Below are positions 39,416 to 52,212 of a stretch of 64,000 bases of DNA, in pieces. The translations under genes and the position numbers were made by a program. Position 1 is the first letter of the stretch. Each line of letters opens with the position of its first letter. Origin of the DNA: Escherichia coli. GTDB lineage: Bacteria; Pseudomonadota; Gammaproteobacteria; Enterobacterales; Enterobacteriaceae. Location: NCBI RefSeq assembly GCF_013315695.1, contig NZ_CP054353.1. One strand, written 5' to 3'. Below the pieces are notes generated by a model. That model was not told the origin of the DNA. It made no database searches and saw only the letters and a list, made by a program, of their open reading frames with translations.

Positions 39416-40669
39416 ATGCTGGAACAAATGGGCATTGCCGCGAAGCAAGCCTCTTATAAATTAGCGCAACTCTCCAGCCGCGAAAAAAATCGTGTGCTGG
39501 AAAAAATCGCCGATGAACTGGAAGCACAAAGCGAAATCATCCTCAACGCTAACGCCCAGGATGTTGCTGACGCGCGTGCCAATGGCCTTAGCGAAGCGAT
39601 GCTTGACCGTCTGGCACTGACGCCCGCACGGCTGAAAGGCATTGCCGACGATGTGCGCCAGGTGTGCAATCTCGCCGATCCGGTGGGGCGGGTAATCGAT
39701 GGCGGCGTACTGGACAGTGGCCTGCGTCTGGAGCGTCGTCGCGTACCGCTGGGGGTTATTGGCGTGATTTATGAAGCGCGCCCGAACGTGACGGTTGATG
39801 TCGCTTCGCTGTGCCTGAAAACAGGTAACGCAGTGATCCTGCGCGGCGGCAAAGAAACCTGTCGCACTAACGCTGCAACGGTAGCGGTGATTCAGGACGC
39901 CCTGAAATCCTGCGATTTACCGGCAGGCGCAGTACAGGCGATTGATAATCCTGACCGCGCGCTGGTCAGTGAAATGCTGCGTATGGATAAATACATCGAC
40001 ATGCTGATCCCGCGCGGCGGGGCTGGTTTGCATAAACTGTGCCGCGAACAGTCGACAATCCCGGTGATCACTGGTGGTATAGGCGTATGCCATATTTACG
40101 TTGATGAAAGCGCAGAGATCGCTGAAGCATTAAAAGTGATCGTCAACGCGAAAACTCAGCGACCGAGCACATGTAATACGGTAGAAACCTTGCTGGTAAA
40201 TAAAAACATCGCCGATAGCTTCCTGTCCGCATTAAGCAAGCAAATGGCGGAAAGCGGCGTGACGTTACACGCAGATGCTGCTGCGCTGGCGCAGTTGCAG
40301 ACAGGCCCCGCGAAGGTGGTGGCGGTTAAAGCCGAAGAGTATGACGATGAGTTTCTGTCATTAGATTTGAACGTCAAAATCGTCAGCGATCTTGACGATG
40401 CCATCGCCCATATTCGTGAACACGGCACGCAACACTCCGATGCGATCCTGACCCGCGATATGCGCAACGCCCAGCGTTTTGTTAACGAAGTGGATTCGTC
40501 CGCTGTTTACGTTAACGCCTCTACGCGTTTTACCGACGGCGGCCAGTTTGGTCTGGGAGCGGAAGTGGCGGTAAGCACACAAAAACTCCACGCGCGTGGC
40601 CCGATGGGCCTGGAAGCACTGACCACTTACAAGTGGATCGGCATCGGTGATTACACCATTCGTGCGTAA
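39416..40669 (+). CDS. proA: Gamma-glutamyl phosphate reductase
   Basis: 417 aa aldehyde-dehydrogenase-family protein directly after proB. Confidence 0.95.
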
Positions 40670-40783
40670 ATAAAACCGGGTGATGCAAAAGTAGCCATTT
40701 GATTCACAAGGCCATTGACGCATCGCCCGGTTAGTTTTAACCTTGTCCACCGTGATTCACGTTCGTGAACATGTCCTTTCAGG

Positions 40784-40859
40784 GCCGATATAGCTCAGTT
40801 GGTAGAGCAGCGCATTCGTAATGCGAAGGTCGTAGGTTCGACTCCTATTATCGGCACCA
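40784..40859 (+). tRNA. thrW: tRNA-Thr (anticodon CGU), thrW-like
   Basis: 76-nt GCCGATATAGCTCAGTTGGTAGAGCAGCGCATTCGTAATGCGAAGGTCGTAGGTTCGACTCCTATTATCGGCACCA; cloverleaf arms, CGT anticodon, encoded CCA. Confidence 0.9.
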
Positions 40860-41024
40860 TTCAAACATCTCCCCAAGTCTACTAAAGTCTTTCAAAACCC
40901 CTTATAATCCGCGTATTAAAGCCCCGTTCGTCTTTTGACGTCTACTAAAGTCCCTCAAAATCTACGGTCAGATGGGGGTACTTATGGGGGTATTTGCTGT
41001 TCGGTTTAGTGGAGGTACCCCCAA

Positions 41025-42239
41025 GTGAAACTCAATGCCCGTCAAATAGACACAGCCAAGCCAAAAGAGAAGGCTTACAAGCTGGCCGATGGTGGCGGTT
41101 TGTATCTCTTGGTAAAACCTAATGGAGGTAAATACTGGCGACTTAAATATCGTGTAGCTGGTAAAGAGAAGCTATTGGCACTAGGTGTTTATCCTGAGGT
41201 TACTCTAGCCGATGCTCGGGCAAAACGTGAAGATGCGAAAAGAGGTATCGCTGGTGGTATCGAACCGATGGAAGCGAAACGAGAGGAAAAGATTGCCCGG
41301 GAAACGCAGTTAAACAACACCTTCAAAGATATTGCCCTTGAGTGGCACAGCAGCAAATTAAAAAAATGGTCTGCTGGTTATGCTTCAGACATCCTCGAAG
41401 CCTTCAACAAAGATGTGTTCCCTTACATTGGCAAAAAACCCATCGCCGAAATCAAACCACTTGAACTTCTGAATGTGCTGCGTCGCATCGAGGGGCGCGG
41501 TGCTACAGAAAAAGCCAAAAAAGTGAGGCAACGGTGCGGGGAAGTTTTCCGCTATGCAATAGTCACTGGTCGCGCAGAGTATAACCCTGCACCAGACCTT
41601 ACTAGCGCGATGCAAGGCCATGAATCTAATCATTACCCTTTCCTTACAGCCAAAGAATTACCTGATTTTTTCAAGGCATTGTCCAGTTACTCAGGAAGCG
41701 CATTGGTTGTTATGGCGGCTCGTCTACTGATTATCACCGGCTTGCGGACTGGCGAACTACGTGGCGCATTATGGGATGAAATTGATTTCAACAAGGCTAT
41801 CTGGGAGATACCCGCTTCACGTATGAAAATGCGGCGGCCTCATATTGTGCCATTGTCTGAGCAGGCTCTTTCGCTTATTGGGAAGATTAGAGAAATAACA
41901 GGCAATTACCCTCTTATGTTTCCCGGGCGCAATGATCCAAGGAAAACAATGAGCGAGGCCAGCATAAACCAAGTGTTTAAGCGCATTGGCTACGCTGGAC
42001 GTGTAACTGGTCATGGGTTCCGGCACACTATGAGTACGATTTTGCATGAGCAGGGCTATAACACTGCGTGGATAGAAACGCAGCTCGCTCACGTTGATAA
42101 GAACTCAATTCGTGGCACATACAACCATGCGCAATATCTGGATGGAAGGCGGGAGATGCTTCAATGGTATGCCGACTATATGGATTCTCTCGAGCATGGC
42201 GGAAATGTGGTGCATATGGTGTTTGAAAAACACGCATGA
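41025..42239 (+). CDS. int: Tyrosine site-specific integrase (P4-type)
   Basis: 404 aa, GTG start with GGAGG SD; N-terminal arm-binding-type region (GGGLYLLVKPNGGKYWRLKYR) and C-terminal catalytic R-H-R-Y region (HGFRHT ... RGTYNHAQY). Confidence 0.85.
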   Translation: MKLNARQIDTAKPKEKAYKLADGGGLYLLVKPNGGKYWRLKYRVAGKEKLLALGVYPEVTLADARAKREDAKRGIAGGIEPMEAKREEKIARETQLNNTFKDIALEWHSSKLKKWSAGYASDILEAFNKDVFPYIGKKPIAEIKPLELLNVLRRIEGRGATEKAKKVRQRCGEVFRYAIVTGRAEYNPAPDLTSAMQGHESNHYPFLTAKELPDFFKALSSYSGSALVVMAARLLIITGLRTGELRGALWDEIDFNKAIWEIPASRMKMRRPHIVPLSEQALSLIGKIREITGNYPLMFPGRNDPRKTMSEASINQVFKRIGYAGRVTGHGFRHTMSTILHEQGYNTAWIETQLAHVDKNSIRGTYNHAQYLDGRREMLQWYADYMDSLEHGGNVVHMVFEKHA

Positions 42240-42890
42240 AACAACTGGACAAGTATACAGAGGTTTACTAAAGTATAAGGGAGTAGATTGATAAAAACTC
42301 ACAGAGGATTGCTATTTAACAGTTAGCCATGGAGAAGGGCAATCGCTCTTTTAACAACGAAGATGGAATCTTCTACGCAGCTGAAAAGCTGGATGCTCTT
42401 TAACAGCCTTTGGTGCTTTTCTGATGCAGGAAAGAATAGGGATACATGCACCTTTACAATGCATGTAATGATTCATCCATGAGGCTGCGGAGCGCTGACA
42501 AAGCGCAATTGCTCTTTAACATTGATGTGGGCGGGATGGTTCGTCCCGCAGTGACCGATAGATTTCTATCGGGAAACATACAATGATTCAAATATGAATC
42601 TACGGCGCTGACAAAGCGCAATTGCTCTCTTGCCTGCCCACCATGCCCTGAAAAAGGGCGTTCTTTAAAACTACTGGATGTCACGCCTAATAGCGTGATC
42701 CTGCCGAAATGCAGGGTAGCTCTACCCTTGTGGAGCAAACAAACCAAAACAATCTGACTATCTTTTATAAAAGACCGCAATATGTTTTTCATATTGTGGT
42801 CTTTGGCGTATTCGACATTTGACGCAAATAAAACTCTCGCCATTCGTTGCAGGAGGGGGTTATTGCGTCATTAGTACAGGATATTAATAA

Positions 42891-43094
42891 ATGGCTAATT
42901 ACAATTCATTAATTCGTCTCTCTGAAGTTCAAAGGCGAACTGGTTATAGCAAAGCATGGATTTATCGTCTTATTAGTCAGGGGAGGTTCCCTAAACAGGT
43001 AAAAATTGGAAGTCGGGCAATTGCTTTTGTTGAGTCTGAAATAGATGAATGGATTGAGAAGTGTATATTAGAATCTAGAGACGAGGTGGCCTGA
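42891..43094 (+). CDS. alpA: AlpA-family phage transcriptional regulator / excisionase-like protein
   Basis: 67 aa; AlpA signature RLSEVQRRTGYSKAWIYRLISQGRFPKQVKIGSRAIAFVESEIDEWI. Confidence 0.8.
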   Translation: MANYNSLIRLSEVQRRTGYSKAWIYRLISQGRFPKQVKIGSRAIAFVESEIDEWIEKCILESRDEVA

Positions 43095-43525
43095 TGGAAA
43101 AGAAAAACCGCCCATTACAGGCGGCTAATTCAGATATTCGTGTATCTGATGTTACGCCCCTTACAAAATCCCTTCAAGCACCAAAGCGCACACCGAAAAA
43201 GCATCGTGCCAGAGTCTATATGCTGCGTACTGGTATAGAGGGATGGACAGAAAATGACATTCTTCGCTACTGCCGTCTGTCTTCTGGTCGTAACTATGCA
43301 ACAGAGTTAGAACGCCAGCTTGGAATCACTCTGGAGCGTATCGACGAAAAGAATCCTGATGGTATCGGAACACACCTTCGCTACCGTTTCTCCTGCCGTG
43401 GTGATGTTCTGAAAGTGATCACTCATGTTAACCATCTTGCGAACATAAATGATCACAACGGACTTTCTCAGCAGGAAATTGCCGACATTCTGAAACTCTA
43501 CCCGGACGCGTTTAACGCCGCCTAA
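43094..43525 (+). CDS. Hypothetical basic protein
   Basis: 143 aa; begins at the alpA stop; no recognisable motif. Confidence 0.4.
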   Translation: MEKKNRPLQAANSDIRVSDVTPLTKSLQAPKRTPKKHRARVYMLRTGIEGWTENDILRYCRLSSGRNYATELERQLGITLERIDEKNPDGIGTHLRYRFSCRGDVLKVITHVNHLANINDHNGLSQQEIADILKLYPDAFNAA

Positions 43526-43537
43526 CGGAGACTGAAA

Positions 43538-44371
43538 ATGAACATCGAAAAAAGCAGATTAATTTCTGAGGCCGCCCCTCATCTGAACGCCTCTCTGGGC
43601 ACAATTAACGGTAATGAATTTGCCGCAATTGTCCCGGTTATTCCTGGTCATATCGGTGGGCGTGAAACCAATATTGTTAGCGCAAAAGCGTTACACAAAG
43701 CGTTGGGCGTGGGAAAAGACTTCTCTACATGGATCACTGATCGCATCTCTGAATATGACTTCACCATTGGGCACGATTACTCAGTCCATAAAACAATTTC
43801 CCCAAATTTGGGGAAAAGCCCGAATGGCGCGGCTTACAGCAAGATAAAGCACTCTGGCAGACCCGGTAAAGACTATCTGTTAAGTGTCGGAATGGCGAAA
43901 GAACTGGCAATGATCGAACGCAATGATCAGGGTCGCGCTATCCGCCGTTATTTCATCCAGTGCGAGGAAGAATTACAGCGTAGCGTTCCTGAAATCGCCG
44001 CCCGCTATCGTCGCCAGCTAAAAGCCCGTCTCAGTGCCGCAAACAACTTTAAGCCAATGTGCGATGCGCTGAATATGGCCCGTGCCGAGATGGGTAAAAC
44101 GACGCAGCAACACCACTACACAAACGAGAGCAATATGATTTCTCGTATCGTTCTTGGTGGGCTAACTGCTAAGCAGTGGGCGCGGATAAATGGCTATTCT
44201 GGCGAACCTCGCGACCATATGAACGCAGAACAGCTTGAGCACCTCTCATATCTCGAAAGCACCAATATCACGTTAATTGATATGGGCATGGAATATGAGC
44301 AGCGCAAAGGAGAACTCACCCGCCTGTCGCAACGCTGGCTCGCCAAGCGTCTGGAGGCGGTCCATGTTTAA
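43538..44371 (+). CDS. Phage antirepressor-like protein
   Basis: 277 aa; N-terminal SAKALHKALGV...FSTWITDRI block resembles the antirepressor N-terminal domain. Confidence 0.5.
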   Translation: MNIEKSRLISEAAPHLNASLGTINGNEFAAIVPVIPGHIGGRETNIVSAKALHKALGVGKDFSTWITDRISEYDFTIGHDYSVHKTISPNLGKSPNGAAYSKIKHSGRPGKDYLLSVGMAKELAMIERNDQGRAIRRYFIQCEEELQRSVPEIAARYRRQLKARLSAANNFKPMCDALNMARAEMGKTTQQHHYTNESNMISRIVLGGLTAKQWARINGYSGEPRDHMNAEQLEHLSYLESTNITLIDMGMEYEQRKGELTRLSQRWLAKRLEAVHV

Positions 44372-44546
44372 GCCGACAGGAACACCACAACCTCAAAAAC
44401 GCTACAAAGATGCCCACGGAGCACTCGTTACTGTCGAAAGCGTGTCTCACAACCGAGTGACGTTTTATCGCGACGGGTATCAATCGCCATGCGTACAACC
44501 GCTGGCGCGCTTCATGAAGGAGTTCGCGGAGGTTAACAAATGCTAA
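44364..44546 (+). CDS. Hypothetical small protein
   Basis: 60 aa from ATG at 44364 (ATGTTTAA overlap with the preceding stop). Confidence 0.3.
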   Translation: MFKPTGTPQPQKRYKDAHGALVTVESVSHNRVTFYRDGYQSPCVQPLARFMKEFAEVNKC

Positions 44547-45607
44547 CCGTCCAGAAGAAGATATTTTCACTGGCTGGTATGTCACCAAAATCCAGCAATA
44601 TGACAGCAAAGTCTGGCATTAATACAGCAGATACAAGCAAAGTTTATCATTTTCTGGTGGTAGGAGCGGATGCCTTAACTATGTCAGAAATTACGGTCGA
44701 TGGTGTTAGCGTTGAGAAGGTCAGCGGCTGCGCCAGAGAATTTCTGGTCGTAGATGGCTTTCTCTGCTCGCGTAGTGACTCCACAAAAACCTTCGTCCAT
44801 ACGCGCGACGTTAACGAAATGAGCGCGATGTATTGTGCATCTGGTGCTTCCAATACTGAGTTTTCGGAGTCCATAAAAAAGAGCTTGCCGTTATGCGGCA
44901 ACACGGTTTATGGTTATAAGGCACCTCATAAAACGGGTGCCGGGATTGGCGTCCTGAAAATTCTGAAGGCGACATATGACGCGCCGAGCGTCTTTTTTTA
45001 TGTCGTAGGTCTGACTCACCCATTTTTTGGGCGTTGGTGTATAATCCAGCGCCTTTGTCAATCAATGGTGGCTCAGGCGGGGGCTTCTTCGGAAGCGCCG
45101 GTATCCTTCAGAGCCGGTTACGCCAACCCTGTCTGGGCTACCACCAGCGAAATTGGCGTTTCCGGTGGTAGCGTAACCTGCTATCTGAAGGAGGCTGCCA
45201 CATGCTGGCTACTACCCCTACCCAAAAACCGCAATTTATCTGGATTATCGCCGCAGTTCGCCGCGATTGCCCGACAATTACCGCCAAAATTCATCATATT
45301 GCTGCCGAGTCTGAACGCGATGCTCGCCGTTCTCTGGTGCGCGATCACGTCTGCTTTTTTGCTGGTCGTATCCGCATGGAGGTGGCACATGATTAAAACC
45401 TACGATGTGCATATGGATCCCCTCGAACGCACAAGCCAGATCATCACACTGACAGAAGTGATTAACGACATTCTGGTGAGCAACTCTCCCTCACGAGACG
45501 AAAGGCTGAAGGCGTTACTCGCGATATTGGATCTCGCCGTTCGTGACGTTCATTTCCTGCTGGAAGGTGGCGAAATGCCAGGAAAAACGGGGGCAACCAA
45601 TGAATAA
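44540..45607 (+). CDS. Hypothetical ORF, possibly over-called or chimeric
   Basis: 355-aa open frame with heterogeneous composition; the only long open frame over 44.5-45.6 kb; its C-terminal part could be an independent small gene. Confidence 0.25.
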
Positions 45608-45794
45608 CTCAATTAATACCCCTCGCCTTACGTCCGCACTTCAATTAATCGAGCAAGCAGCGGCTGTCCTGGTTGCTGTCAGTCTTTCGGCTGAAGAAAT
45701 GGACGCTGCTGATGTCGTGGATGCGATTAAAGCGTGCTCATCTTTGGTTAACGATGCCCGTGCCGAGCTGGTAATTCTTGGGGGTGAAAAATGA
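45600..45794 (+). CDS. Hypothetical small protein
   Basis: 64 aa from ATG at 45600. Confidence 0.3.
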   Translation: MNNSINTPRLTSALQLIEQAAAVLVAVSLSAEEMDAADVVDAIKACSSLVNDARAELVILGGEK

Positions 45795-46054
45795 ATATCA
45801 ACTTAATTTATCGTCATCCGTGTGAGCTGGAAATTGAATCATTGCTGGGGCGTGAAGAGCCATATCCAGACTCATTCACTCCCGCAGATTGCGCGACTGA
45901 ACGGCTTACCAGAGCGCGCACAGGTCTGGTTCATGTGATGAATGAGATTGTTCCCTCGGTGGGAGGGGAACAGGCGACAGTAATCAATAGCTGGCTACAA
46001 AAAGTTACCTCCCTGATAGATATCGGTTTAATCGATGTGGAGAGTGCGAAATGA
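45791..46054 (+). CDS. Hypothetical small protein
   Basis: 87 aa; overlaps neighbours by 4 nt on the same strand. Confidence 0.35.
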   Translation: MNINLIYRHPCELEIESLLGREEPYPDSFTPADCATERLTRARTGLVHVMNEIVPSVGGEQATVINSWLQKVTSLIDIGLIDVESAK

Positions 46055-46272
46055 CCAACATCCAGCTCATTGAAGCGCAATGTCGCATCGAACAGGTTCA
46101 GACTGTTTTAGGGTTCTGGCTTGAAGGGGCCAGCCCCAGCAACAGAGACAAGTTAATGATTGGCGCGGTTATGTCACTGCTCAATGGCGTACCAGAAGCT
46201 ATTCAGGAAGCGGACGAATTGTTGGGCAAATATGAGTTACAGAATCATTCAGGCGAGGCGAAACATGAATAA
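46051..46272 (+). CDS. Hypothetical small protein
   Basis: 73 aa; 4-nt overlap with the upstream gene. Confidence 0.35.
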   Translation: MTNIQLIEAQCRIEQVQTVLGFWLEGASPSNRDKLMIGAVMSLLNGVPEAIQEADELLGKYELQNHSGEAKHE

Positions 46273-46867
46273 TTTCTTAACTTTCCATGCAGAAGCAACG
46301 CCTGACGGCGTAAACATCATGTACCGCAGCAACGATGGCATGACAGAACGCGTTGAGGCCGTCTCATATATTGATGCCGTAAATCGTCTGGATGCCGGGG
46401 ATTATGACGATAAACCAGATGAAGGTATGTCAATACATCTCGCTATTGCCGATGGCGGCAACCAGGGATATTTCGATTACACATCACAGCATAACGTCAT
46501 TATGTGGAGATGGCTGATCGCAACAGTATTCATGCTGGAAATGAGAGAGGAAAACGGCACTGTCAGCATCATTGATGATACTGGCAATCCTTCCGAAGTG
46601 GCTGTTTATTCCAACGGCATCGTCGCCATGCCGCTGTATCCAGTAGCAGAGCGCCTCGCTATGGCAAACAACATTGAGGGCGCGATGATAGAACGTTTTG
46701 GCATCGAGTCTGGCACAGAACGCGCCATCATTTTCTACAGAGCCATGATGGATGTGGAACAAGGAGCACTGACTCCATTTGGTCGTGAAACGCTTGCTGA
46801 ACTTCACAACAGCTTTATAGCTGAACTGAATGAAAACGGCATGCCAGCGGAACCAGTGACGCACTGA
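46265..46867 (+). CDS. Hypothetical protein
   Basis: 200 aa from ATG at 46265 (MNNFLTF). Confidence 0.4.
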   Translation: MNNFLTFHAEATPDGVNIMYRSNDGMTERVEAVSYIDAVNRLDAGDYDDKPDEGMSIHLAIADGGNQGYFDYTSQHNVIMWRWLIATVFMLEMREENGTVSIIDDTGNPSEVAVYSNGIVAMPLYPVAERLAMANNIEGAMIERFGIESGTERAIIFYRAMMDVEQGALTPFGRETLAELHNSFIAELNENGMPAEPVTH

Positions 46868-46877
46868 GGATGGAGCC

Positions 46878-47219
46878 ATGATTACTAAAAATTTCCGACT
46901 GAATGCGCTGGCAAATAAGTATGCGTCGGCACTGTATAACCACATTACCTCCACCAGCGGCGGGGACTATTTCATGGTTGATGCGGACGGCGAGGCCGTA
47001 CGTGTGGAAATCGTCAATGGAGTAAAAGGCGTTCGCAGCCTGATCGATAGCTACACACTGGCAGCCATGAAAGTGTTCTACCCGCAGTGGGAAACCGTGG
47101 GGATCGAGCTTCTTGAGCGTTGCGTCACTAAGGACGGATTGACTGACGTCGGGCGTGAGATATGGCAAAGCATGGTTAATGACATGGGCGCAACTGTAGC
47201 GGGAGGTTCTCATGCGTGA
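46878..47219 (+). CDS. Hypothetical protein
   Basis: 113 aa; same-strand operon member. Confidence 0.35.
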   Translation: MITKNFRLNALANKYASALYNHITSTSGGDYFMVDADGEAVRVEIVNGVKGVRSLIDSYTLAAMKVFYPQWETVGIELLERCVTKDGLTDVGREIWQSMVNDMGATVAGGSHA

Positions 47220-47583
47220 AAATGCAGAAATGGCGCTTAGCTCCGCAATCGGAGAGCAGGTGGCAAAGATTGCTGGTGCTGTGTGGATTCATAACCTTCA
47301 TTCTACTGGTGAAGAGAAAATGGCAATTCAGACGCCAGAGGGACGCACCATTACTACATCTCTGAAGCCGTCAGATGTTTGTGATCTGATTTGCGCATTC
47401 ATGTACCCAGCAATGAGGACTGTCCACGGCGATAAGTGGAAACTTGCGACAACCGCTGAATTTGATATGTGGCTAAACAATGATGGCATGCTGACTGATT
47501 ACGGAATAACCAAGTGGCAGATGCTGGTTAGCCATATCGCAAACGCTATAGACCACGTGGGGTACGGTGATGCGAAACATTGA
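47212..47583 (+). CDS. Hypothetical protein
   Basis: 123 aa; overlaps the primase start. Confidence 0.35.
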   Translation: MRENAEMALSSAIGEQVAKIAGAVWIHNLHSTGEEKMAIQTPEGRTITTSLKPSDVCDLICAFMYPAMRTVHGDKWKLATTAEFDMWLNNDGMLTDYGITKWQMLVSHIANAIDHVGYGDAKH

Positions 47584-50326
47584 TCTTATCCGTCAGGTTA
47601 TCAGTGCGTCTGAAAACAACTGGCCTCATGTGCTGGGCTGCCTGAACATAAATGTCCCTGACTCTCCGCGCCGTCATGCTCCCTGCCCTGCATGTGGGGG
47701 CAAAGATCGATTCCGGTTCGATGACAACGGGCGCGGTAGCTTCATCTGTAATCAGTGCGGCGCTGGTGATGGGCTGGATTTAATTAAACGCGTAAATAAC
47801 TGCGACACAACAGAGGCGGCGCTTCTTGCCGCTGATGTTCTGGGTATTGATTACCGGACAACGGAAACACCAGAAGCCACCAGCCAGAAACGGGAACAAC
47901 TGGAAACCGAGCGCCAGCGACGCGAACAGGAGCGCCTGAAAAGGGCAGAGAAGGACGAACAACAAAGACGGGATACGTTTTCCCGTCAGTTTGATGACAT
48001 GCGCAGAAAGGCTGTAAACGGCAAATCTGATTATCTGGTTGCGAAAGGGGTAGGTGATTTTACATTCCCCGTGTTGCCCGATGGATCTCTGTTGCTGGCG
48101 CTGGTGGATAAATCCGGCGCAGTCACAGCAGCACAGACTATTACATCACATGGTGAAAAAAGACTCCTGACAGGTTCAGCAAAGCGGGGGGCATATCACG
48201 CCATAAACGCGCCAGAAACAACACAGAGCATCTTAATCGCAGAAGGGCTGGCAACGGCATTATCTGCCCATTTAATTCGTCCAGAGGCGCTGACAGTGGC
48301 GGCGATTGATGCCGGGAACCTGTTATATGTCGCCCAGGTACTGCGGGATAAATTTCCTTCAGCACAAATCATCATTGCTGCGGATAACGACCACAGCGAA
48401 GGAAGACAAAACACGGGGAGAATAGCAGCAGAAAAAGCAGCTTTATCTGTTTCTGGATGGGTGGCATTACCCCCGACAGATCACAAAGCAGACTGGAATG
48501 ATTACCACCAAAAACACGGCATTAAATGCGCCACAGAAGCGTTCAATAAGTCAATGTACCAACCACAGGGTAATGGCGTGAAACATGAGCCACAGACCAT
48601 TGAGGGAAGCGATTTTAAGGTTATGGATACCGACCCACTGAAACCAAGAATAGAAAGCCGCGAGGATGGTATTTATTGGGTATCTCCGAGAGCTGACAGC
48701 CAGAGTGGAGAAATCATCAATAACGAAAGCTGGTTATGTTCTCCGTTAAGCGTTATCGGTACTGGCAGAGACGATAAAGACCAGTATCTCATTCTTCGCT
48801 GGCTGTCGTTTGGTTCTGAAACGCCGACAACCGCTGCCATTCCACTGGCTGATATTGGTGAACGTGAAGGATGGCGCACACTTAAAGCTGGTGGGGTAAA
48901 TGTCACGACCAAAAGCAGCCTCAGAGCAATACTGGCAGACTGGCTACAACGCAGTGGCTCTCGTGAATTGTGGCGTGTTGCTCATGCCACTGGCTGGCAA
49001 TGCGGAGCGTACATCATGCCTGATGGGGAAATCATCGGAACACCTGAAAATCCTGTGCTGTTCAGCGGGAGAAGCTCAGCCGCAGCCGGATATACCGTCT
49101 CAGGGAGCGCGAAAAGCTGGCGTGATAACGTGGCGCGTCTGGCCTTTGGTAACTATTCAATGATGACCGGGATCGGCGCAGCACTGGCAGCGCCATTGAT
49201 TGGGCTGGTGGGCGCTGACGGGTTCGGCATTCATTTCTATGAGCAGTCGAGCGCAGGTAAGACCACCACGGCAAACGTGGCGAGCAGCTTATACGGCAAC
49301 CCTGATTTACTGCGGCTGACGTGGTACGGAACCGCGCTGGGGCTGGCAAATGAGGCCGCCGCCCACAATGACGGACTAATGCCGCTTGATGAAGTTGGTC
49401 AGGGCGCTGATCCTGTCAGCGTTTCACAGTCTGCCTATGCGTTATTTAACGGTGTAGGGAAACTGCAAGGCGCTAAAGATGGTGGAAACCGGGATCTAAA
49501 ACGCTGGCGTACAGTGGCAATCAGCACCGGAGAAATGGATTTAGAAACATTTATCGCTACTTCCGGGCGAAAAACCAAAGCCGGGCAACTGGTGCGACTG
49601 CTGAATATTCCGTTGAGTAAAGCAGTACGCTTTCACGATTACCAGAACGGAAAACAGCACGCAGACGCACTGAAAGACGCTTACCAGCATCACCACGGCG
49701 CGTCCGGGCGTGAGTGGATTAAATGGCTGGCAGACCACCAGCAACAGGCTATTAAAACCGTTCGTGACTGCGAAAGCAGATGGAGAAGCCTGATCCCATC
49801 CGATTATGGTGAGCAGGTTCACCGTGTAGCCGCGCGATTTGCCATTCTGGAGGCCGCATTGTTGTTAGGCGAGGTTGTAACAGGCTGGGATGCTCAGACA
49901 TGCCGTGATGCGATACAGCACAGCTATAACGCATGGTTGCGCGAGTTCGGCACAGGTAACAAAGAGCATCAGCAGATTATTGAACAAACGGAGGCATTTC
50001 TTAATGCCTATGGGCTTAGCCGTTTTGCACCATTTCCATACAGCCCGGCAGATTTGCCCATCAAAGATTTAGCCGGATACCGTCAGCGTGGAGAACATGA
50101 CGAAAGCCCAATGATTTTCTACACATTCCCGGCCACATTTGAAAAGGAGATCGCATGTGGTTTCAACGCAAAACAGTTTGCTGAAGTGTTGAAAAAAGCC
50201 GGGATGCTAACCCCACCAAACAGCGGTCGTGGATACCAAAGAAAATCACCACGTATTCAGGGACGACAAATAAACGTTTATGTACTCAATTACCAGCCAG
50301 GAGATTATAACTCATCTGAAGAATGA
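47567..50326 (+). CDS. Satellite-type DNA primase/helicase (zinc-finger + TOPRIM + D5-like NTPase)
   Basis: 919 aa; N-terminal CPACGG...CNQCG zinc finger, TOPRIM-like region (ILIAEGLATALS), Walker A SSAGKTT in the C-terminal half. Confidence 0.8.
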   Translation: MMRNIDLIRQVISASENNWPHVLGCLNINVPDSPRRHAPCPACGGKDRFRFDDNGRGSFICNQCGAGDGLDLIKRVNNCDTTEAALLAADVLGIDYRTTETPEATSQKREQLETERQRREQERLKRAEKDEQQRRDTFSRQFDDMRRKAVNGKSDYLVAKGVGDFTFPVLPDGSLLLALVDKSGAVTAAQTITSHGEKRLLTGSAKRGAYHAINAPETTQSILIAEGLATALSAHLIRPEALTVAAIDAGNLLYVAQVLRDKFPSAQIIIAADNDHSEGRQNTGRIAAEKAALSVSGWVALPPTDHKADWNDYHQKHGIKCATEAFNKSMYQPQGNGVKHEPQTIEGSDFKVMDTDPLKPRIESREDGIYWVSPRADSQSGEIINNESWLCSPLSVIGTGRDDKDQYLILRWLSFGSETPTTAAIPLADIGEREGWRTLKAGGVNVTTKSSLRAILADWLQRSGSRELWRVAHATGWQCGAYIMPDGEIIGTPENPVLFSGRSSAAAGYTVSGSAKSWRDNVARLAFGNYSMMTGIGAALAAPLIGLVGADGFGIHFYEQSSAGKTTTANVASSLYGNPDLLRLTWYGTALGLANEAAAHNDGLMPLDEVGQGADPVSVSQSAYALFNGVGKLQGAKDGGNRDLKRWRTVAISTGEMDLETFIATSGRKTKAGQLVRLLNIPLSKAVRFHDYQNGKQHADALKDAYQHHHGASGREWIKWLADHQQQAIKTVRDCESRWRSLIPSDYGEQVHRVAARFAILEAALLLGEVVTGWDAQTCRDAIQHSYNAWLREFGTGNKEHQQIIEQTEAFLNAYGLSRFAPFPYSPADLPIKDLAGYRQRGEHDESPMIFYTFPATFEKEIACGFNAKQFAEVLKKAGMLTPPNSGRGYQRKSPRIQGRQINVYVLNYQPGDYNSSEE

Positions 50327-50350
50327 GCTTCTTCATGTGCGTAGAAAAGG

Positions 50351-50456
50351 TGTTGGTTCAGTTGGTTCAATTTGTAAAGAGTATTGTTTTATAAGGATTT
50401 TATTCTTTTTATTGAACCAACACTGAACCAACAACACGGTATTTTGAACCAACACA
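50351..50456. promoter_or_regulatory. Candidate replication origin: inverted clusters of TGAACCAAC iterons flanking an AT-rich spacer
   Basis: GTTGGTTCAGTTGGTTCAA (50352-50370) then ~42 bp AT-rich, then TGAACCAACACTGAACCAACAA and TGAACCAACACA (50413-50456); begins 25 bp after the primase stop. Confidence 0.5.
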
Positions 50457-50774
50457 ATGTGACTGAATTGATGCGCACAACACCTGGCTGGCATCAGAGA
50501 GTGTTTTACGAGACTTTCGTAAAATCCTGTGTACAAGGGCGTGACGTTTTTGAAAGTGAGCACTACGAAATTTTCGTAGTTCAGAAAACAGCCTCTGAGA
50601 AGTTGTTATGCCTGTTCAGCAAACCATCCGCATAGCTGATCGCGAATCAAATTACCAATGGAGCCAGAAGCAAGGGCAGAACTGAAAAGCGCCTGCCGTG
50701 AAGAGTAATGCGACACCATAAATATAGTTTTTAGAGTCCATAAAAAACCTGTCAAAACCTGACACACAGAACGA

Positions 50775-50806
50775 TGCCACCAGCTACTGAGCGGTGGCAT
50801 TTTTTT
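50775..50806 (+). terminator. Rho-independent terminator
   Basis: Hairpin TGCCACC-AGCTACTGAGC-GGTGGCA followed by TTTTTTT. Confidence 0.6.
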
Positions 50807-50901
50807 GTGCTATTTGTTTCATATTTTGCAATTACGATGATGAATATTGCGATTTGTGAAACTATAATAACTGTTGTTTTATACAGTTCTAAGGGGGCGT
50901 T

Positions 50902-51063
50902 ATGGCTATTTCAGTAAAGCCGGTATTGATAAGTGAGAAGCAAATGGAAGCGATAAAGAAAATTCAGGAAGAGCAGCGTAAAAAATCAGGAATTGGAGTA
51001 GCGCCAACTCTGCATGAAATTGCACGAGGGTTAATAGATAAGGCGCTGGCAGGCTGTATGTGA
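50902..51063 (+). CDS. Small ORF (53 aa) not in the ORF track; possible small DNA-binding protein
   Basis: ATG at 50902 with AAGGGGG SD 7 nt upstream; charged helical composition. Confidence 0.35.
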   Translation: MAISVKPVLISEKQMEAIKKIQEEQRKKSGIGVAPTLHEIARGLIDKALAGCM

Positions 51064-51079
51064 AAATGGATGGCATCGC

Positions 51080-51541
51080 ATGGAACTAAAATTTATTGAT
51101 AACCCTGTGCGATTACAGGCCTTTCTTAACGAGCCAGGCAATACCGAAAATATTGTTGAGCCGGGGCACACGTACTACATCAAGCCTGATGCGGTATATC
51201 TCGGCATCTACGAAGGATTAGTGCTGGCTGGCGTTCATGAAGTGCGTAACTTCTGGCATAGCGTTGTTGAATGCCATGCGGTGTACGACCCCGGATTCCG
51301 TGGTGAATATGCACTGCAAGGACATCGATTATTCTGCAAATGGCTTCTCGAAAACTCACCATTCCTTAACAGCATTACCATGGTTCCTGACACCACGAAA
51401 TACGGACGGGCAATTATCCGTTTGCTTGGCGCTACCCGTGTTGGTCATCTTGATGATGCTTATATCAGATGTGGTAAACCCGTCGGCGTAACGCTTTATC
51501 AGTTAACTCGGCAACAATATAAGGAATTCAGCGAATGTTAA
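51080..51541 (+). CDS. Hypothetical protein (candidate virion-associated protein)
   Basis: 153 aa; first of three tightly coupled same-strand genes. Confidence 0.4.
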   Translation: MELKFIDNPVRLQAFLNEPGNTENIVEPGHTYYIKPDAVYLGIYEGLVLAGVHEVRNFWHSVVECHAVYDPGFRGEYALQGHRLFCKWLLENSPFLNSITMVPDTTKYGRAIIRLLGATRVGHLDDAYIRCGKPVGVTLYQLTRQQYKEFSEC

Positions 51542-52212
51542 TTACCCATATAGCTTATAAACATCTCAATCGTGCCGTATACGAAAAAGGCGGTGATGGT
51601 GGTGCCTCTAAAGCTCAGGCGAAGGCCCAGCAGCAGGCAATTGATTTGCAGCGCGAGCAGTGGAATACGGTGATGAATAATCTCAAGCCGTATGCAGAAG
51701 TCGGATTGCCTGCTTTACAACAACTACAAGGACTGATGACTCTGGAAGGGCAGAATAAAGCCGCGAATGATTTCTTTGGTTCTGGTTTATATAAAACACA
51801 GGCAGATCAGGCCCGTTATCAGAACCTTGTCTCAGCAGAAGCTACCGGGGGGCTTGGCTCAACAGCTACCAGTAACCAGTTATCTTCCATTGCGCCCATG
51901 CTTTATAACAATTGGCTCAGTGGGCAAATGCAAAATTATGGAAACCTGCTAAATGTCGGGATGAATGCGGCATCAGGGCAGGCAACAGCAGGGCAAAACT
52001 ACGCCAATAATACCGGACAACTCTTGCAGGGGCTTGGCGCTATTCGTGCAGGTCAGGCGCAGCAGCCATCCAGTCTTGCGCGTGGTATTGGTGGGGCGGC
52101 ATCAGGCGCTTTAGCGGGTGCGCAACTTGGTTCCGTTGTTCCGGGTATAGGTAATGTCGCCGGGGCTATTGGTGGTGGGCTTATTGGTCTTGTTGGGGGG
52201 CTTGGATTCTAA
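51535..52212 (+). CDS. Hypothetical protein with Gly-rich hydrophobic C-terminus (candidate phage ejection/internal protein)
   Basis: 225 aa; Gln/Asn-rich middle, C-terminal GxxxG-rich tail (GIGNVAGAIGGGLIGLVGGLGF). Confidence 0.4.
   Translation: MLITHIAYKHLNRAVYEKGGDGGASKAQAKAQQQAIDLQREQWNTVMNNLKPYAEVGLPALQQLQGLMTLEGQNKAANDFFGSGLYKTQADQARYQNLVSAEATGGLGSTATSNQLSSIAPMLYNNWLSGQMQNYGNLLNVGMNAASGQATAGQNYANNTGQLLQGLGAIRAGQAQQPSSLARGIGGAASGALAGAQLGSVVPGIGNVAGAIGGGLIGLVGGLGF

Follow-up and report, generated by a model that had tools for sequence, protein, structure and literature searches.

The window analyzed here, a 64,000-nt stretch of an Escherichia coli genome (contig NZ_CP054353.1), contains a P4-like satellite, a PICI-like island, that is integrated at tRNA-Thr(CGT). 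The island encodes an integrase, an AlpA-type HTH protein, AntA and a DUF4222 protein, followed by the proposed immunity region and by several small genes together with a TOPRIM/DUF927 primase. The integrase, the HTH gene, and the primase are all annotated in an identical E. coli genome, and the last of these matches the DNA primase PHROG with an E value of 2e-178. A search for the right-hand att site detected no direct repeat of the tRNA 3' end of at least 16 nt within 21 kb, and a scan of positions 42240 to 42900 for an upstream “late” promoter returned nothing above the shuffled expectation. Related sequences were found in 1392 of the 5426 complete E. coli genomes, i.e., in about one-quarter of them.

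Genes, RNAs, and signals of the proposed immunity region

The promoter, RNAs, target sites, and small genes of this region all lie on one strand within a single open reading frame (ORF) of 355 codons (Table 1). In the RefSeq annotation of the identical locus, this is one 355-aa coding sequence named “ash family protein,” with neither an icd-like gene nor an RNA gene. The ORF is preceded by a GGAGG Shine-Dalgarno (SD) sequence (44528 to 44532) located 7 nt before its ATG, which itself overlaps the stop codon of the upstream DUF4222 gene (ATGCTAA); its stop codon shares bases with the start codon of the following gene (ATGAATAA at 45600). The original prediction, made from this sequence by itself, described the frame as patchy in composition and suspected several small genes or a structured RNA underneath it. 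The composition is indeed uneven, with a GC fraction of 0.41 at positions 44545 to 44680 and of 0.58 to 0.59 at positions 45040 to 45174.

Table 1. Coordinates of the features of the immunity region and of the tRNA gene at which the island is integrated
Feature	Positions	Strand	Details
tRNA-Thr	40784-40859		
Long eta-like ORF	44540-45607	+	355 codons, ATG start
Predicted sigma-70 promoter, P4 PLE counterpart	44885-44914	+	-35 TTGCCG (44885-44890), 18-nt spacer, -10 TATGGT (44909-44914)
IsrK/P4-SeqA-like leader RNA	44921-44998	+	Two 5' hairpins, then intrinsic terminator
Site a1	44946-44952	+	TTGGCGT, loop of leader hairpin 2
Site b1	44962-44969	+	TCTGAAGG, leader linker
Conserved spacer hairpin	45030-45053	+	GGCGTTGG/CCAGCGCC, loop TGTATAAT with TATAAT (45040-45045)
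C4/P4-CI-type antisense RNA	45061-45148	+	Rfam RF01695
Segment b'	45104-45112	+	TCCTTCAGA, single-stranded hairpin loop
Segment a'	45120-45126	+	ACGCCAA, single-stranded junction
Downstream target region, equivalent of P1 a2/b2 and P4 seqC	45153-45192	+	
Site a2	45153-45159	+	TTGGCGT
Site b2	45184-45192	+	TCTGAAGGA, overlaps the icd SD AAGGAGG (45188-45194)
Icd/Kil-like gene	45202-45396	+	64 aa, own SD, frame different from that of the long ORF
72-aa gene	45389-45607	+	SD GGAGG (45378-45382), 6 nt before ATG

The covariance-model search suggested by the original prediction identified two structured RNAs inside the ORF, both scoring above the Rfam gathering thresholds. The leader RNA matches RF01394 with 67.8 bits (gathering score, 50) over model positions 1 to 77 of 77, its intrinsic terminator consisting of a stem-loop at positions 44978 to 44992 and a T-run. 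The second RNA matches the C4 family with 79.9 bits (gathering score, 45), again over the full length of the model (positions 1 to 87 of 87). Its long closing stem (45066 to 45082 paired with 45127 to 45143) encloses two hairpins, the closing helix resembles a tRNA acceptor stem, and the 3' end of the match reads ACCACCA. Mature C4 RNA is processed from a longer transcript, with RNase P acting at its 5' end in P1 and P4. The minimum free energy of the C4 segment, -46.4 kcal/mol, corresponds to a z score of -4.8 relative to 200 dinucleotide shuffles, versus -1.1 for the opposite strand; the inverted repeats that had been noticed in the GC-rich stretch at positions 45050 to 45180 are present and are not due to chance. 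In an alignment of 31 sequences, double compensatory changes were observed in 17 of the 28 base pairs of C4 and in 6 of the 16 base pairs of isrK, so that both of these structures are also backed by covariation.

The predicted promoter located just upstream of the leader was absent from the output of a generic sigma-70 scan and was recognized through conservation only: the CTTGC and TAT..T elements are found at a fixed distance from the start of isrK in all 42 loci compared. Transcription is predicted to start at around position 44921, where the match to isrK begins. A possible assignment of this segment to the c4-a1b1 family (RF03163) was rejected, as the match at positions 44908 to 44960 scored 19.1 bits, below the gathering score of 46.7. 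The locus does contain the a1 and b1 sequences as such, and some related loci reach the c4-a1b1 gathering score.

Given that an isrK-type terminator lies between this promoter and C4, synthesis of C4 RNA would need either read-through or a second promoter. The spacer between the two RNAs contains a conserved segment that represents either an RNA hairpin or the -10 element of a promoter close to C4. RNAalifold analysis of the 12 loci with a 62-nt spacer yielded 9 base pairs, of which 4 show double compensatory changes, and the sequence of this segment is conserved as well. Its TATAAT was weighed as a second C4 promoter; it sits in the loop of the covarying hairpin.

The expectation that the long ORF masks several small genes was also borne out. 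The first of these, the Icd/Kil-like gene, matches the NCBIfam family NF033153 with 71.7 bits (cutoff, 25; positions 45202 to 45393), as well as PHROG entries, and is orthologous to the 65-aa C terminus (Kil) of the P4 ORF; its SD, located 7 nt before the start codon, is the one overlapped by b2. The ATG of the second, the 72-aa gene, overlaps the icd stop codon by 8 nt (ATGATTAA). This gene is in frame with the long ORF, so that here it is fused to the C-terminal end of the latter. Its proposed independence from the rest of the frame is well supported: besides the in-frame ATG at position 45389 with its own GGAGG, there is a separate 219-nt coding sequence (WP_001426173.1) in a 92.7%-identical E. 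coli genome (relative L002), and the substitutions are mostly synonymous, with pN/pS values of 0 to 0.21 against relatives and no non-synonymous substitutions in 2 of the 3 comparisons. AlphaFold predicts a helical hairpin for this part, which is the sole section of the 355 aa with pLDDT values of 54 to 70. The 72-aa protein produced no matches in Pfam, NCBIfam, or PHROGs, and a BLASTP comparison revealed no similarity to P4 epsilon, which is encoded at the same position. An 85-aa ORF on the opposite strand (44647 to 44904) was considered as the true gene of the N-terminal region and was rejected, as it has no family match and the frames of that strand contain stop codons and have a higher pN/pS than the plus-strand frame.

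Predicted antisense pairing and relationship to P4, P1/P7, and Gifsy-1

The a' and b' segments of the C4 RNA are exactly complementary to a1 and b1 and, equally, to a2 and b2, over 7 nt for a and 8 to 9 nt for b. Across 45 loci with 32 distinct C4 cores, the a/b sites and the segments a' and b' change in concert, all three partners together, the average complementarity being 14.6/15.9 nt for self pairs versus 10.2/9.7 nt for non-self pairs. A three-way compensatory switch of b1, b', and b2 has occurred naturally in an E. coli locus that is 96.8% identical to the one analyzed here. These loci provide a clean natural example of antisense cassettes (a1/b1, a'/b', and a2/b2) being exchanged among otherwise near-identical islands, which bears on immunity between satellites and between satellites and their helpers.

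A close counterpart of this arrangement is found in phage P4, whose immunity region consists of the PLE promoter, seqA, the CI RNA, seqC, the nested genes eta and kil, and then epsilon up to the primase gene alpha. IsrK has been described as a structural homologue of the SeqA of P4, in which the CI RNA pairs with seqA and seqC (PMC4825925). PMC10111431 places the CI RNA, together with a constitutive promoter, within the eta gene, and describes Eta as being coupled to an alpA homologue, with its translation preventing termination. The three Rfam models with hits in this locus also hit the P4 region, and in identical order, with the P4 CI RNA scoring 74.9 bits against the C4 model. The P4 ORF of 214 codons, which entered the databases first as “put. 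ash gene” and subsequently as “cI gene product,” runs across the RNA genes and ends with a Kil/Icd-like sequence of 65 aa. All parts of the two regions have identical order and strand, with 75% DNA similarity over the core. In both, the long ORF begins upstream of the internal promoter and crosses the RNA genes, the first small gene after the RNA is Icd/Kil-like and has its SD inside the downstream target site, the next gene overlaps the kil/icd end by 8 nt, and the primase operon follows. Judged by its sequence, the long ORF is a homologue of P4 eta (“ash” and “cI ORF” in the older nomenclature).

There are also several differences. In P4, kil forms the in-frame C terminus of eta, whereas here icd is in another frame because the spacer before its ATG is 1 nt shorter than that in P4; the long ORF continues instead through the +1 frame of icd and fuses with the next gene, which brings it to 355 codons instead of 197. 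The spacer between isrK and C4, which in P4 measures 107 nt, is 62 nt long here and contains the conserved hairpin, and the long ORF is coupled to an upstream DUF4222 gene rather than to an AlpA/Vis homologue. The a/b specificity sequences differ, the gene at the position of epsilon is unrelated, and the integrase gene is located upstream in the same orientation, which is a PICI-like layout.

The immI region of P1 and P7, organized as a1 b1, c4, a2 b2, icd, and ant, encodes an RNA of the same C4 family, with a full-length match. There, too, two recognition segments pair with duplicated sites located upstream and downstream of the RNA, and the downstream site covers the ribosome-binding site of icd, a small gene similar to the one found here. 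In P1 and P7, the specificity of heteroimmunity is set by a few bases in a' and b', and the natural cassette variants described above mirror this specificity. Unlike P1 and P7, in which the antirepressor gene ant lies downstream, the island carries satellite replication genes at that position; it also differs in having the long overlapping ORF and in its subthreshold c4-a1b1 match, even though the sites are present.

Taken together, these features make it likely that the P4-like satellite has its immunity and early-control region here, with the long ORF as the counterpart of P4 eta serving as a ribosome shield. Homology is the basis on which a transcription start, the processing and termination of the RNA, and translation in the long frame are predicted. 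By analogy with P4 and P1, transcripts from the internal promoter would be processed to release the stable C4 RNA, which would bind the a1/b1 and a2/b2 sites of nascent transcripts and block the translation of icd. The untranslated RNA could then be expected to terminate early, leaving the downstream replication genes silent, which would constitute the “immunity” of the satellite. The long ORF, in turn, would be translatable only from transcripts that start upstream and run through alpA to DUF4222, to which its translation would be coupled. Ribosomes crossing the leader, C4, and the target sites would prevent RNA folding, C4 pairing, and termination; this passage is proposed to make induced upstream transcription insensitive to immunity.

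The leader could also operate in the manner of the isrK locus of the prophage Gifsy-1, either in place of the P4 mechanism or in addition to it: the short terminated RNA would remodel read-through transcripts in trans and switch on the translation of icd, their first downstream ORF, and of the genes coupled to it. We regard this as rather unlikely, though of some weight. The leader fits the model of IsrK, Rho-independent terminator included. In Salmonella, the translation of orf45-anrP on a read-through mRNA is activated by short IsrK, and STnc1160, a downstream RNA released by processing, shows complementarity to IsrK (PMC4825925). A downstream RNA complementary to the leader, here predicted to be processed, and a small first ORF with coupling to the gene that follows are features shared by the two loci. 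A short leader containing a1 and b1 could, in addition, titrate C4. However, the contacts that proved to be conserved and co-varying are those between C4 and the a/b sites. Further, the Gifsy-1 mechanism, in which trans-activation of orf45/anrP translation leads to the expression of AntQ, does not involve an Icd-like gene or a primase operon, and the presence of both in this island fits P4 rather than Gifsy-1.

Nature of the “Ash” segment and probable maintenance of the long frame

The long ORF has a strong match to the Pfam family Phage_ASH (PF10554), which scores 117.5 bits (gathering score, 26) and extends over aa 124 to 232, covering profile positions 1 to 106 of 107. In nucleotide coordinates, this corresponds to positions 44909 to 45235, i.e., exactly to the RNA genes. 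The internal promoter and both RNAs (44921 to 45148) lie downstream of the start of the long ORF and are enclosed by it. Among the cassette variants, 31% of the positions in the Ash part differ, and these differences are spread over the three codon positions as 35/27/30, with no bias. The AlphaFold model of the whole ORF has pLDDT values below 50 for residues 1 to 292, and inspection of this model for a hidden fold revealed none outside the C-terminal small gene. The “Ash” part is not a protein domain in the ordinary sense; on this reading, its amino acid sequence is dictated by the RNA genes.

The Rfam models of C4 and isrK detect relatives of CI and seqA in Gram-negative PICIs, inside the genes of the “Bro zone” (PMC10111431). 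In that study, which also covers helper-embedded PICIs, the islands consist of an integration zone with int and alpA, the Bro zone with AntA and Phage_ASH, and a replication zone with the primase, a layout that the island analyzed here matches. However, that study counts Phage_ASH among the protein domains of the Bro network, whereas here it coincides with the RNA genes to the very base and evolves like RNA.

The proposal that Ash is a folded regulatory protein, such as a repressor or antirepressor of the “Bro network,” with the RNA matches being secondary, could draw on the strength of the Pfam match, on the labels of the RefSeq and P4 records (“ash family protein” and “transcriptional repressor”), and on the short N-terminal motif M..VQK..F.LAGL, which recurs across genera. 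It nevertheless appears highly improbable, given the RNA-type covariation and the three-way antisense co-variation of the conserved block, the alteration by cassette replacement of about one-third of the codons at all three positions equally, and the lack of a confident predicted fold. In P4, moreover, the immunity factor that maps to this ORF is the CI RNA (PMC4825925, PMC10111431).

The same features of the Ash part, namely, its coincidence with the RNA genes, the flat distribution of differences over codon positions, and the low pLDDT values, could be taken to mean that the entire long ORF is a pure artefact, a frame that happens to be open across conserved, GC-rich RNA genes and an alternative frame of icd and is never translated, and that nothing here is real apart from the RNAs and the two small genes. 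Further points in this direction come from the N-terminal part, whose 122 aa have no match in Pfam, NCBIfam, or PHROGs and which is hypervariable between genera. In addition, codon 78 of the long ORF is a nonsense codon in one E. coli relative, which implies that a resident island, at least, can do without an intact frame, and 13 loci with the same RNAs and a spacer of only 21 to 25 nt have no such long ORF.

Even so, the frame shows multiple signs of having been maintained, which make the artefact explanation quite unlikely. In the 25 loci with an isrK-C4 spacer of at least 50 nt, the frame of the long ORF is free of stop codons in every case and in all four segments, including the poorly conserved spacer, although the retrieval of the 40 comparison loci, based on a translated query in this very frame, may favor open frames. 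The other two frames contain, on average, 0.7 to 2 stops per segment in the same 25 loci, and shuffled spacers are open only ∼40% of the time. The strong GGAGG SD and the ATG on the upstream stop codon recur in at least 16 related loci. In the N-terminal 120 codons, pN/pS is 0.29 to 0.41, the lowest of the six frames, which points to weak purifying selection. Finally, P4 eta itself is reported as translated and functional (PMC10111431).

The relationship between the long ORF and icd provides an additional argument against the artefact. Among 29 P4-like loci, icd is nested in frame with the long ORF in 21, shifted out of that frame by a 1-nt change in 7, and in the third frame in 1. The locus analyzed here is one of the 7 shifted loci: its icd gene occupies frame f0 and its long ORF frame f1. 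In all 7, the long ORF stays open through the +1 frame of icd, for which synonymous resampling gave a chance of 0.05 to 0.19 per locus. For about 4 independent lineages, the joint chance is roughly 1e-4, an inexact value, as the loci are phylogenetically related.

The doubts of the original prediction about the long frame are thus justified in one respect and not supported in another. The Ash part is indeed no ordinary protein domain, as follows from its overlap with the RNAs, the flat codon positions, and the low pLDDT. That the frame is simply unreal is not borne out, as it is the homologue of P4 eta and has an SD and a coupled ATG, is open in 25 out of 25 loci with a spacer of at least 50 nt, and has a low N-terminal pN/pS. 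From the comparative data, the long frame is probably open for the passage of ribosomes and not for the sake of a protein. It is tempting to go one step further and suggest, tentatively and with somewhat less than even confidence, that the ORF may be kept open purely for ribosome transit across the immunity RNAs, independently of the frame used or the product made.

Significance for P4-like satellites

This locus belongs to a known and well-understood kind of element that is poorly annotated; what sets it apart locally is the position of icd outside the frame of the long ORF. The main value of the analysis is in annotation: the element that probably decides whether the satellite is silent is invisible to the users of RefSeq. 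With respect to the long ORF, the comparative support for a frame kept open so that ribosomes can pass carries an old P4 experiment over to the entire family and does not raise a new question. If the ORF is in fact kept open purely for ribosome transit, a 355-aa read-through fusion protein would be predicted here, made only upon induction, and the names Phage_ASH and “ash family protein” would describe the translation of two RNA genes. The family would then offer comparative evidence of selection acting on translation itself, as a shield against termination.

RNA genes and nested reading frames

The 355-aa ATG-initiated ORF of the original prediction is present, and its composition is uneven as described, the GC content being 0.41 around 44545-44680 and 0.58-0.59 over 45040-45174. 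The short inverted repeats mentioned at ∼45050-45180 exceed chance: segment 45061-45148 folds with a minimum free energy of -46.4 kcal/mol (z = -4.8 versus 200 dinucleotide shuffles), and this folding is strand specific, the complementary strand giving z = -1.1. The suggestion that the region may hold a structured RNA was borne out by a covariance-model search: three relevant Rfam models matched within 40000-52000, all on the plus strand, and two of them, isrK and C4 (an antisense RNA of the C4/P4-CI type), score above their gathering thresholds. The C-terminal part of the ORF likewise proved to be an independent gene, with an in-frame ATG at 45389, GGAGG 6 nt upstream, and a separate annotation in an E. 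coli genome with 92.7% identity.

Features of the locus, in window coordinates
Feature	Position	Strand	Details
Long ORF	44540-45607	+	355 codons; RefSeq "ash family protein"
Predicted internal promoter	-35, 44885-90; -10, 44909-14	+	TTGCCG, 18-nt spacer, TATGGT; 42-locus conservation
c4-a1b1	44908-44960	+	Sub-threshold; Rfam 19.1 bits, gathering 46.7
isrK	44921-44998	+	Rfam 67.8 bits, gathering 50
Target site a1	44946-44952		Exact complement of a'
Target site b1	44962-44969		Exact complement of b'
Intrinsic terminator at leader end	44978-44992	+	Stem-loop, then T-run
Hairpin in 62-nt spacer before C4	45030-37 / 45046-53	+	Loop TGTATAAT
C4 antisense RNA	45061-45148	+	Rfam 79.9 bits, gathering 45
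Recognition segment b'	45104-45112	+	TCCTTCAGA; unpaired in C4
Recognition segment a'	45120-45126	+	ACGCCAA; unpaired in C4
Target site a2	45153-45159		Exact complement of a'
Target site b2	45184-45192		Exact complement of b'
Icd-like 64-aa ORF (icd)	45202-45396	+	NCBIfam 71.7 bits, cut-off 25
72-aa gene	45389-45607	+

The frame of the icd-like ORF differs from that of the long ORF. The sole Pfam match of the 355-aa product, Phage_ASH (aa 124-232, nt 44909-45235), spans the -10 box, the isrK-like RNA, the spacer, C4, the downstream targets, and the first icd codons. In E. coli MSB1_4I, which has an identical sequence, the RefSeq annotation consists of one "ash family protein" CDS, with neither the icd-like gene nor any RNA gene.

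The internal promoter is predicted from CTTGC and TAT..T motifs located at fixed distances upstream of the isrK match in all 42 loci compared; transcription is predicted to start at the first base of that match. In the spacer hairpin, 4 of the 9 pairs co-vary (12 loci), and this structure may act at the RNA level or may instead supply the -10 box of a second promoter close to C4.

Just upstream of the -35 box lies a 22-mer, AGTTTTCGGAGTCCATAAAAAA (44859-44880), with intergenic copies downstream of the primase gene at 50569-50590 and 50726-50747 (91% and 77% identity). A strong intrinsic terminator (∼50776-50806) lies beyond the 50726 copy. This 22-mer may be a shared operator, an UP-like element, or a small transcript.

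Antisense pairing and specificity cassettes

The C4 fold consists of two hairpins enclosed by a long closing stem. Target b2 overlaps the icd Shine-Dalgarno sequence (AAGGAGG, 7 nt before the ATG). Both C4 and isrK reach Rfam gathering thresholds in all 40 related loci of the comparison set (one genome per species, from Escherichia, Klebsiella, Buttiauxella, Pantoea, Lonsdalea, Xenorhabdus, Photorhabdus, and others), and double compensatory changes occur at 17 of the 28 base pairs of C4 and at 6 of the 16 of isrK (31 distinct sequences). In a set of 45 loci, among which 32 distinct C4 cores occur, every a' finds a 7-nt complement both upstream and downstream. For b', the downstream target offers a complement of 7 to 10 nt in all loci but one, and the upstream leader offers one in most loci. 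Pairing is clearly better with a locus's own flanks, averaging 14.6/15.9 nt versus 10.2/9.7 nt with those of other loci.

In a 96.8%-identical E. coli island, the region differs almost only by a matched switch of b1/b'/b2, from CTGAAGG/CCTTCAG to CGAATGG/CCATTCG. Other near-identical islands carry an entirely different cassette of unchanged length. The alternative cassette differs from that of the window at 92 of 296 positions. It behaves as an RNA specificity module and not as a protein domain: the differences are spread evenly over codon positions (35/27/30), and the flanking genes differ by 0-2% only.

The spacer between a2 and b2 (45164-45182) holds GGTGGTAGC and GCGTAACC, complements of 45137-45145, in the 3' strand of the closing stem of C4, and of 45116-45123, pointing to another way of pairing in read-through RNA before processing.

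Maintenance of the long frame

The original prediction held the long ORF to be of doubtful reality. That doubt stands for its product, which is probably not a folded, functional protein: AlphaFold pLDDT is below 50 for residues 1-292 and reaches 54-70 only in the C-terminal small gene, and the N-terminal part, except for a short initial motif, is unalignable between genera. It does not extend to the frame itself, as six lines of evidence point to its maintenance. The start codon overlaps the DUF4222 stop codon (ATGCTAA), with GGAGG 7 nt upstream, and in at least 16 related loci a Shine-Dalgarno sequence precedes an ATG that overlaps or adjoins the stop codon of a sizeable ORF upstream. Stops are absent from this frame across all four segments (isrK, spacer, C4, and the 50 nt beyond it) in each of the 25 loci with isrK-C4 spacers of at least 50 nt; like the rest of the comparison set, these loci are mutually related and were retrieved with a translated query in the long ORF's own frame. 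The other two frames contain on average 0.7-2 stops per segment, and shuffled spacers are open in the long frame only ∼40% of the time. Conservation of the RNAs does not by itself force an open frame, because 13 loci with a spacer of 21-25 nt have the same RNAs but neither the icd-like gene nor the long ORF. In the N-terminal 120 codons, outside the RNA genes, the long frame is the only one of the six without stops and has the lowest pN/pS (0.29-0.41 in three comparisons); in neighboring bona fide genes, this ratio is mostly 0-0.1 and up to ∼0.3.

Of the 29 P4-like loci, 21 resemble P4 in having icd in the frame of the long ORF; icd is out of frame in 7 (the window among them) and occupies the third frame in the remaining one. 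The source of the shift is a distance from GGAGGCTGCC to the ATG that is 1 nt shorter. The long ORF is stop-free through the +1 frame of icd in all 7 shifted loci (roughly four independent lineages), the chance of this being 0.05-0.19 by synonymous resampling of each icd sequence. Against maintenance, the long ORF of comparison locus L002 (E. coli Z1323CEC0013, 1741-2808) has a single nonsense codon, at codon 78, and PGAP labels the entire stretch a frameshifted Icd-like pseudogene, which shows that annotation of the region is unstable. We conclude that the long frame is probably translated and kept open; the comparison of loci lends modest support to the idea that translation itself is under selection.

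Phage P4 eta, the wider island, and a proposed mechanism

A sensitive DNA search of phage records matched phage P4 at 75% identity. The P4 region has the same Rfam order, c4-a1b1, isrK, and C4, and a stop-free ORF of 214 codons that reads through the RNA matches and ends with a 65-aa Icd-like sequence; record names for the ORF are "put. ash gene (aa 1-137)" (1984) and "cI gene product (AA 1-137)" (1990). We take this ORF to be the eta/kil pair of nested genes reportedly described by Forti et al. in 1999. By these matches, the long ORF can be identified as P4 eta.

In P4, eta encloses the CI RNA gene and a constitutive promoter, whose transcript ends early through CI-seqA interactions and is processed to CI; truncated Eta is Kil, and full-length Eta is translated only from the upstream late promoter, in coupling with the alpA homologue, its translation preventing termination (PMC10111431). 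IsrK is a structural homologue of P4 SeqA, and pairing of CI with seqA and seqC causes premature termination of the replication operon (PMC4825925). Relatives of CI and seqA have been detected in Gram-negative PICIs by the Rfam C4 and isrK models (PMC10111431). The architecture is already known from P4 and the RNA matches from these PICIs, and each component is recognized by a curated public model. Unlike P4, the window has a different icd-to-long-ORF frame relation, with the resulting fusion of the long ORF to the next gene, a spacer hairpin, a different upstream coupling partner, different a/b specificity sequences, and, where P4 has epsilon, an unrelated gene.

The 650-nt int-alpA intergenic region contains a 24-nt direct repeat, GCGCTGACAAAGCGCAATTGCTCT, exact at 42492 and 42605 and degenerate at 42326 (span 42326-42628), with a small hairpin in each copy; these repeats may serve to bind a regulator close to the upstream promoter. 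The int-alpA RNA (RF02996) reaches its gathering score upstream of alpA in nine related islands (comparison loci L004, L008, L012, L014, L017, L020, L022, L031, and L035) and was not found by the Rfam scan of window positions 40000-52000, even at E ≤ 1. Downstream of the primase gene lie P22-type ejection-protein genes (DUF2824, gp7, and Inj_translocase; 51080-53630). Beyond them are two IS1 copies, identical to each other (300-nt repeat, 53623 and 57126), and a gene for a CS1-type pilus usher (57883-60180). No tRNA 3'-end repeat of at least 16 nt marking the right border of the island was found within 21 kb. Seven of the loci with isrK-C4 spacers of 21-25 nt (L025, L029, L033, L037, L039, L042, and L043) carry the EFASI RNA (RF02957) 1.2-2.3 kb downstream of C4 and lack the icd-like gene and the long ORF; in them, the isrK-C4 pair has another genomic setting.

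Overlapping ORFs form a coupled chain from alpA to the primase gene. What the sequences show is this chain, the set of parts and their arrangement, the RNA structures, the co-varying contacts, and the occlusion of the icd Shine-Dalgarno sequence by b2; the regulatory steps are drawn from P4 and P1. While the island is resident, its internal promoter would produce a leader transcript, from which C4 would be processed; C4 would then pair with both sets of target sites (a1/b1 and a2/b2) of newly made transcripts, icd would stay untranslated, and transcription would stop ahead of the replication genes. Upon induction, upstream transcription would carry ribosomes through the long ORF; the entire operon up to the primase gene would be expressed because their passage would keep the RNA unfolded, unpaired, and shielded from termination. 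A short IsrK that activates translation in trans, as in Gifsy-1, may act as an additional layer.

In many E. coli genomes, the "ash family protein" annotation conceals an icd-like gene and two RNA genes.
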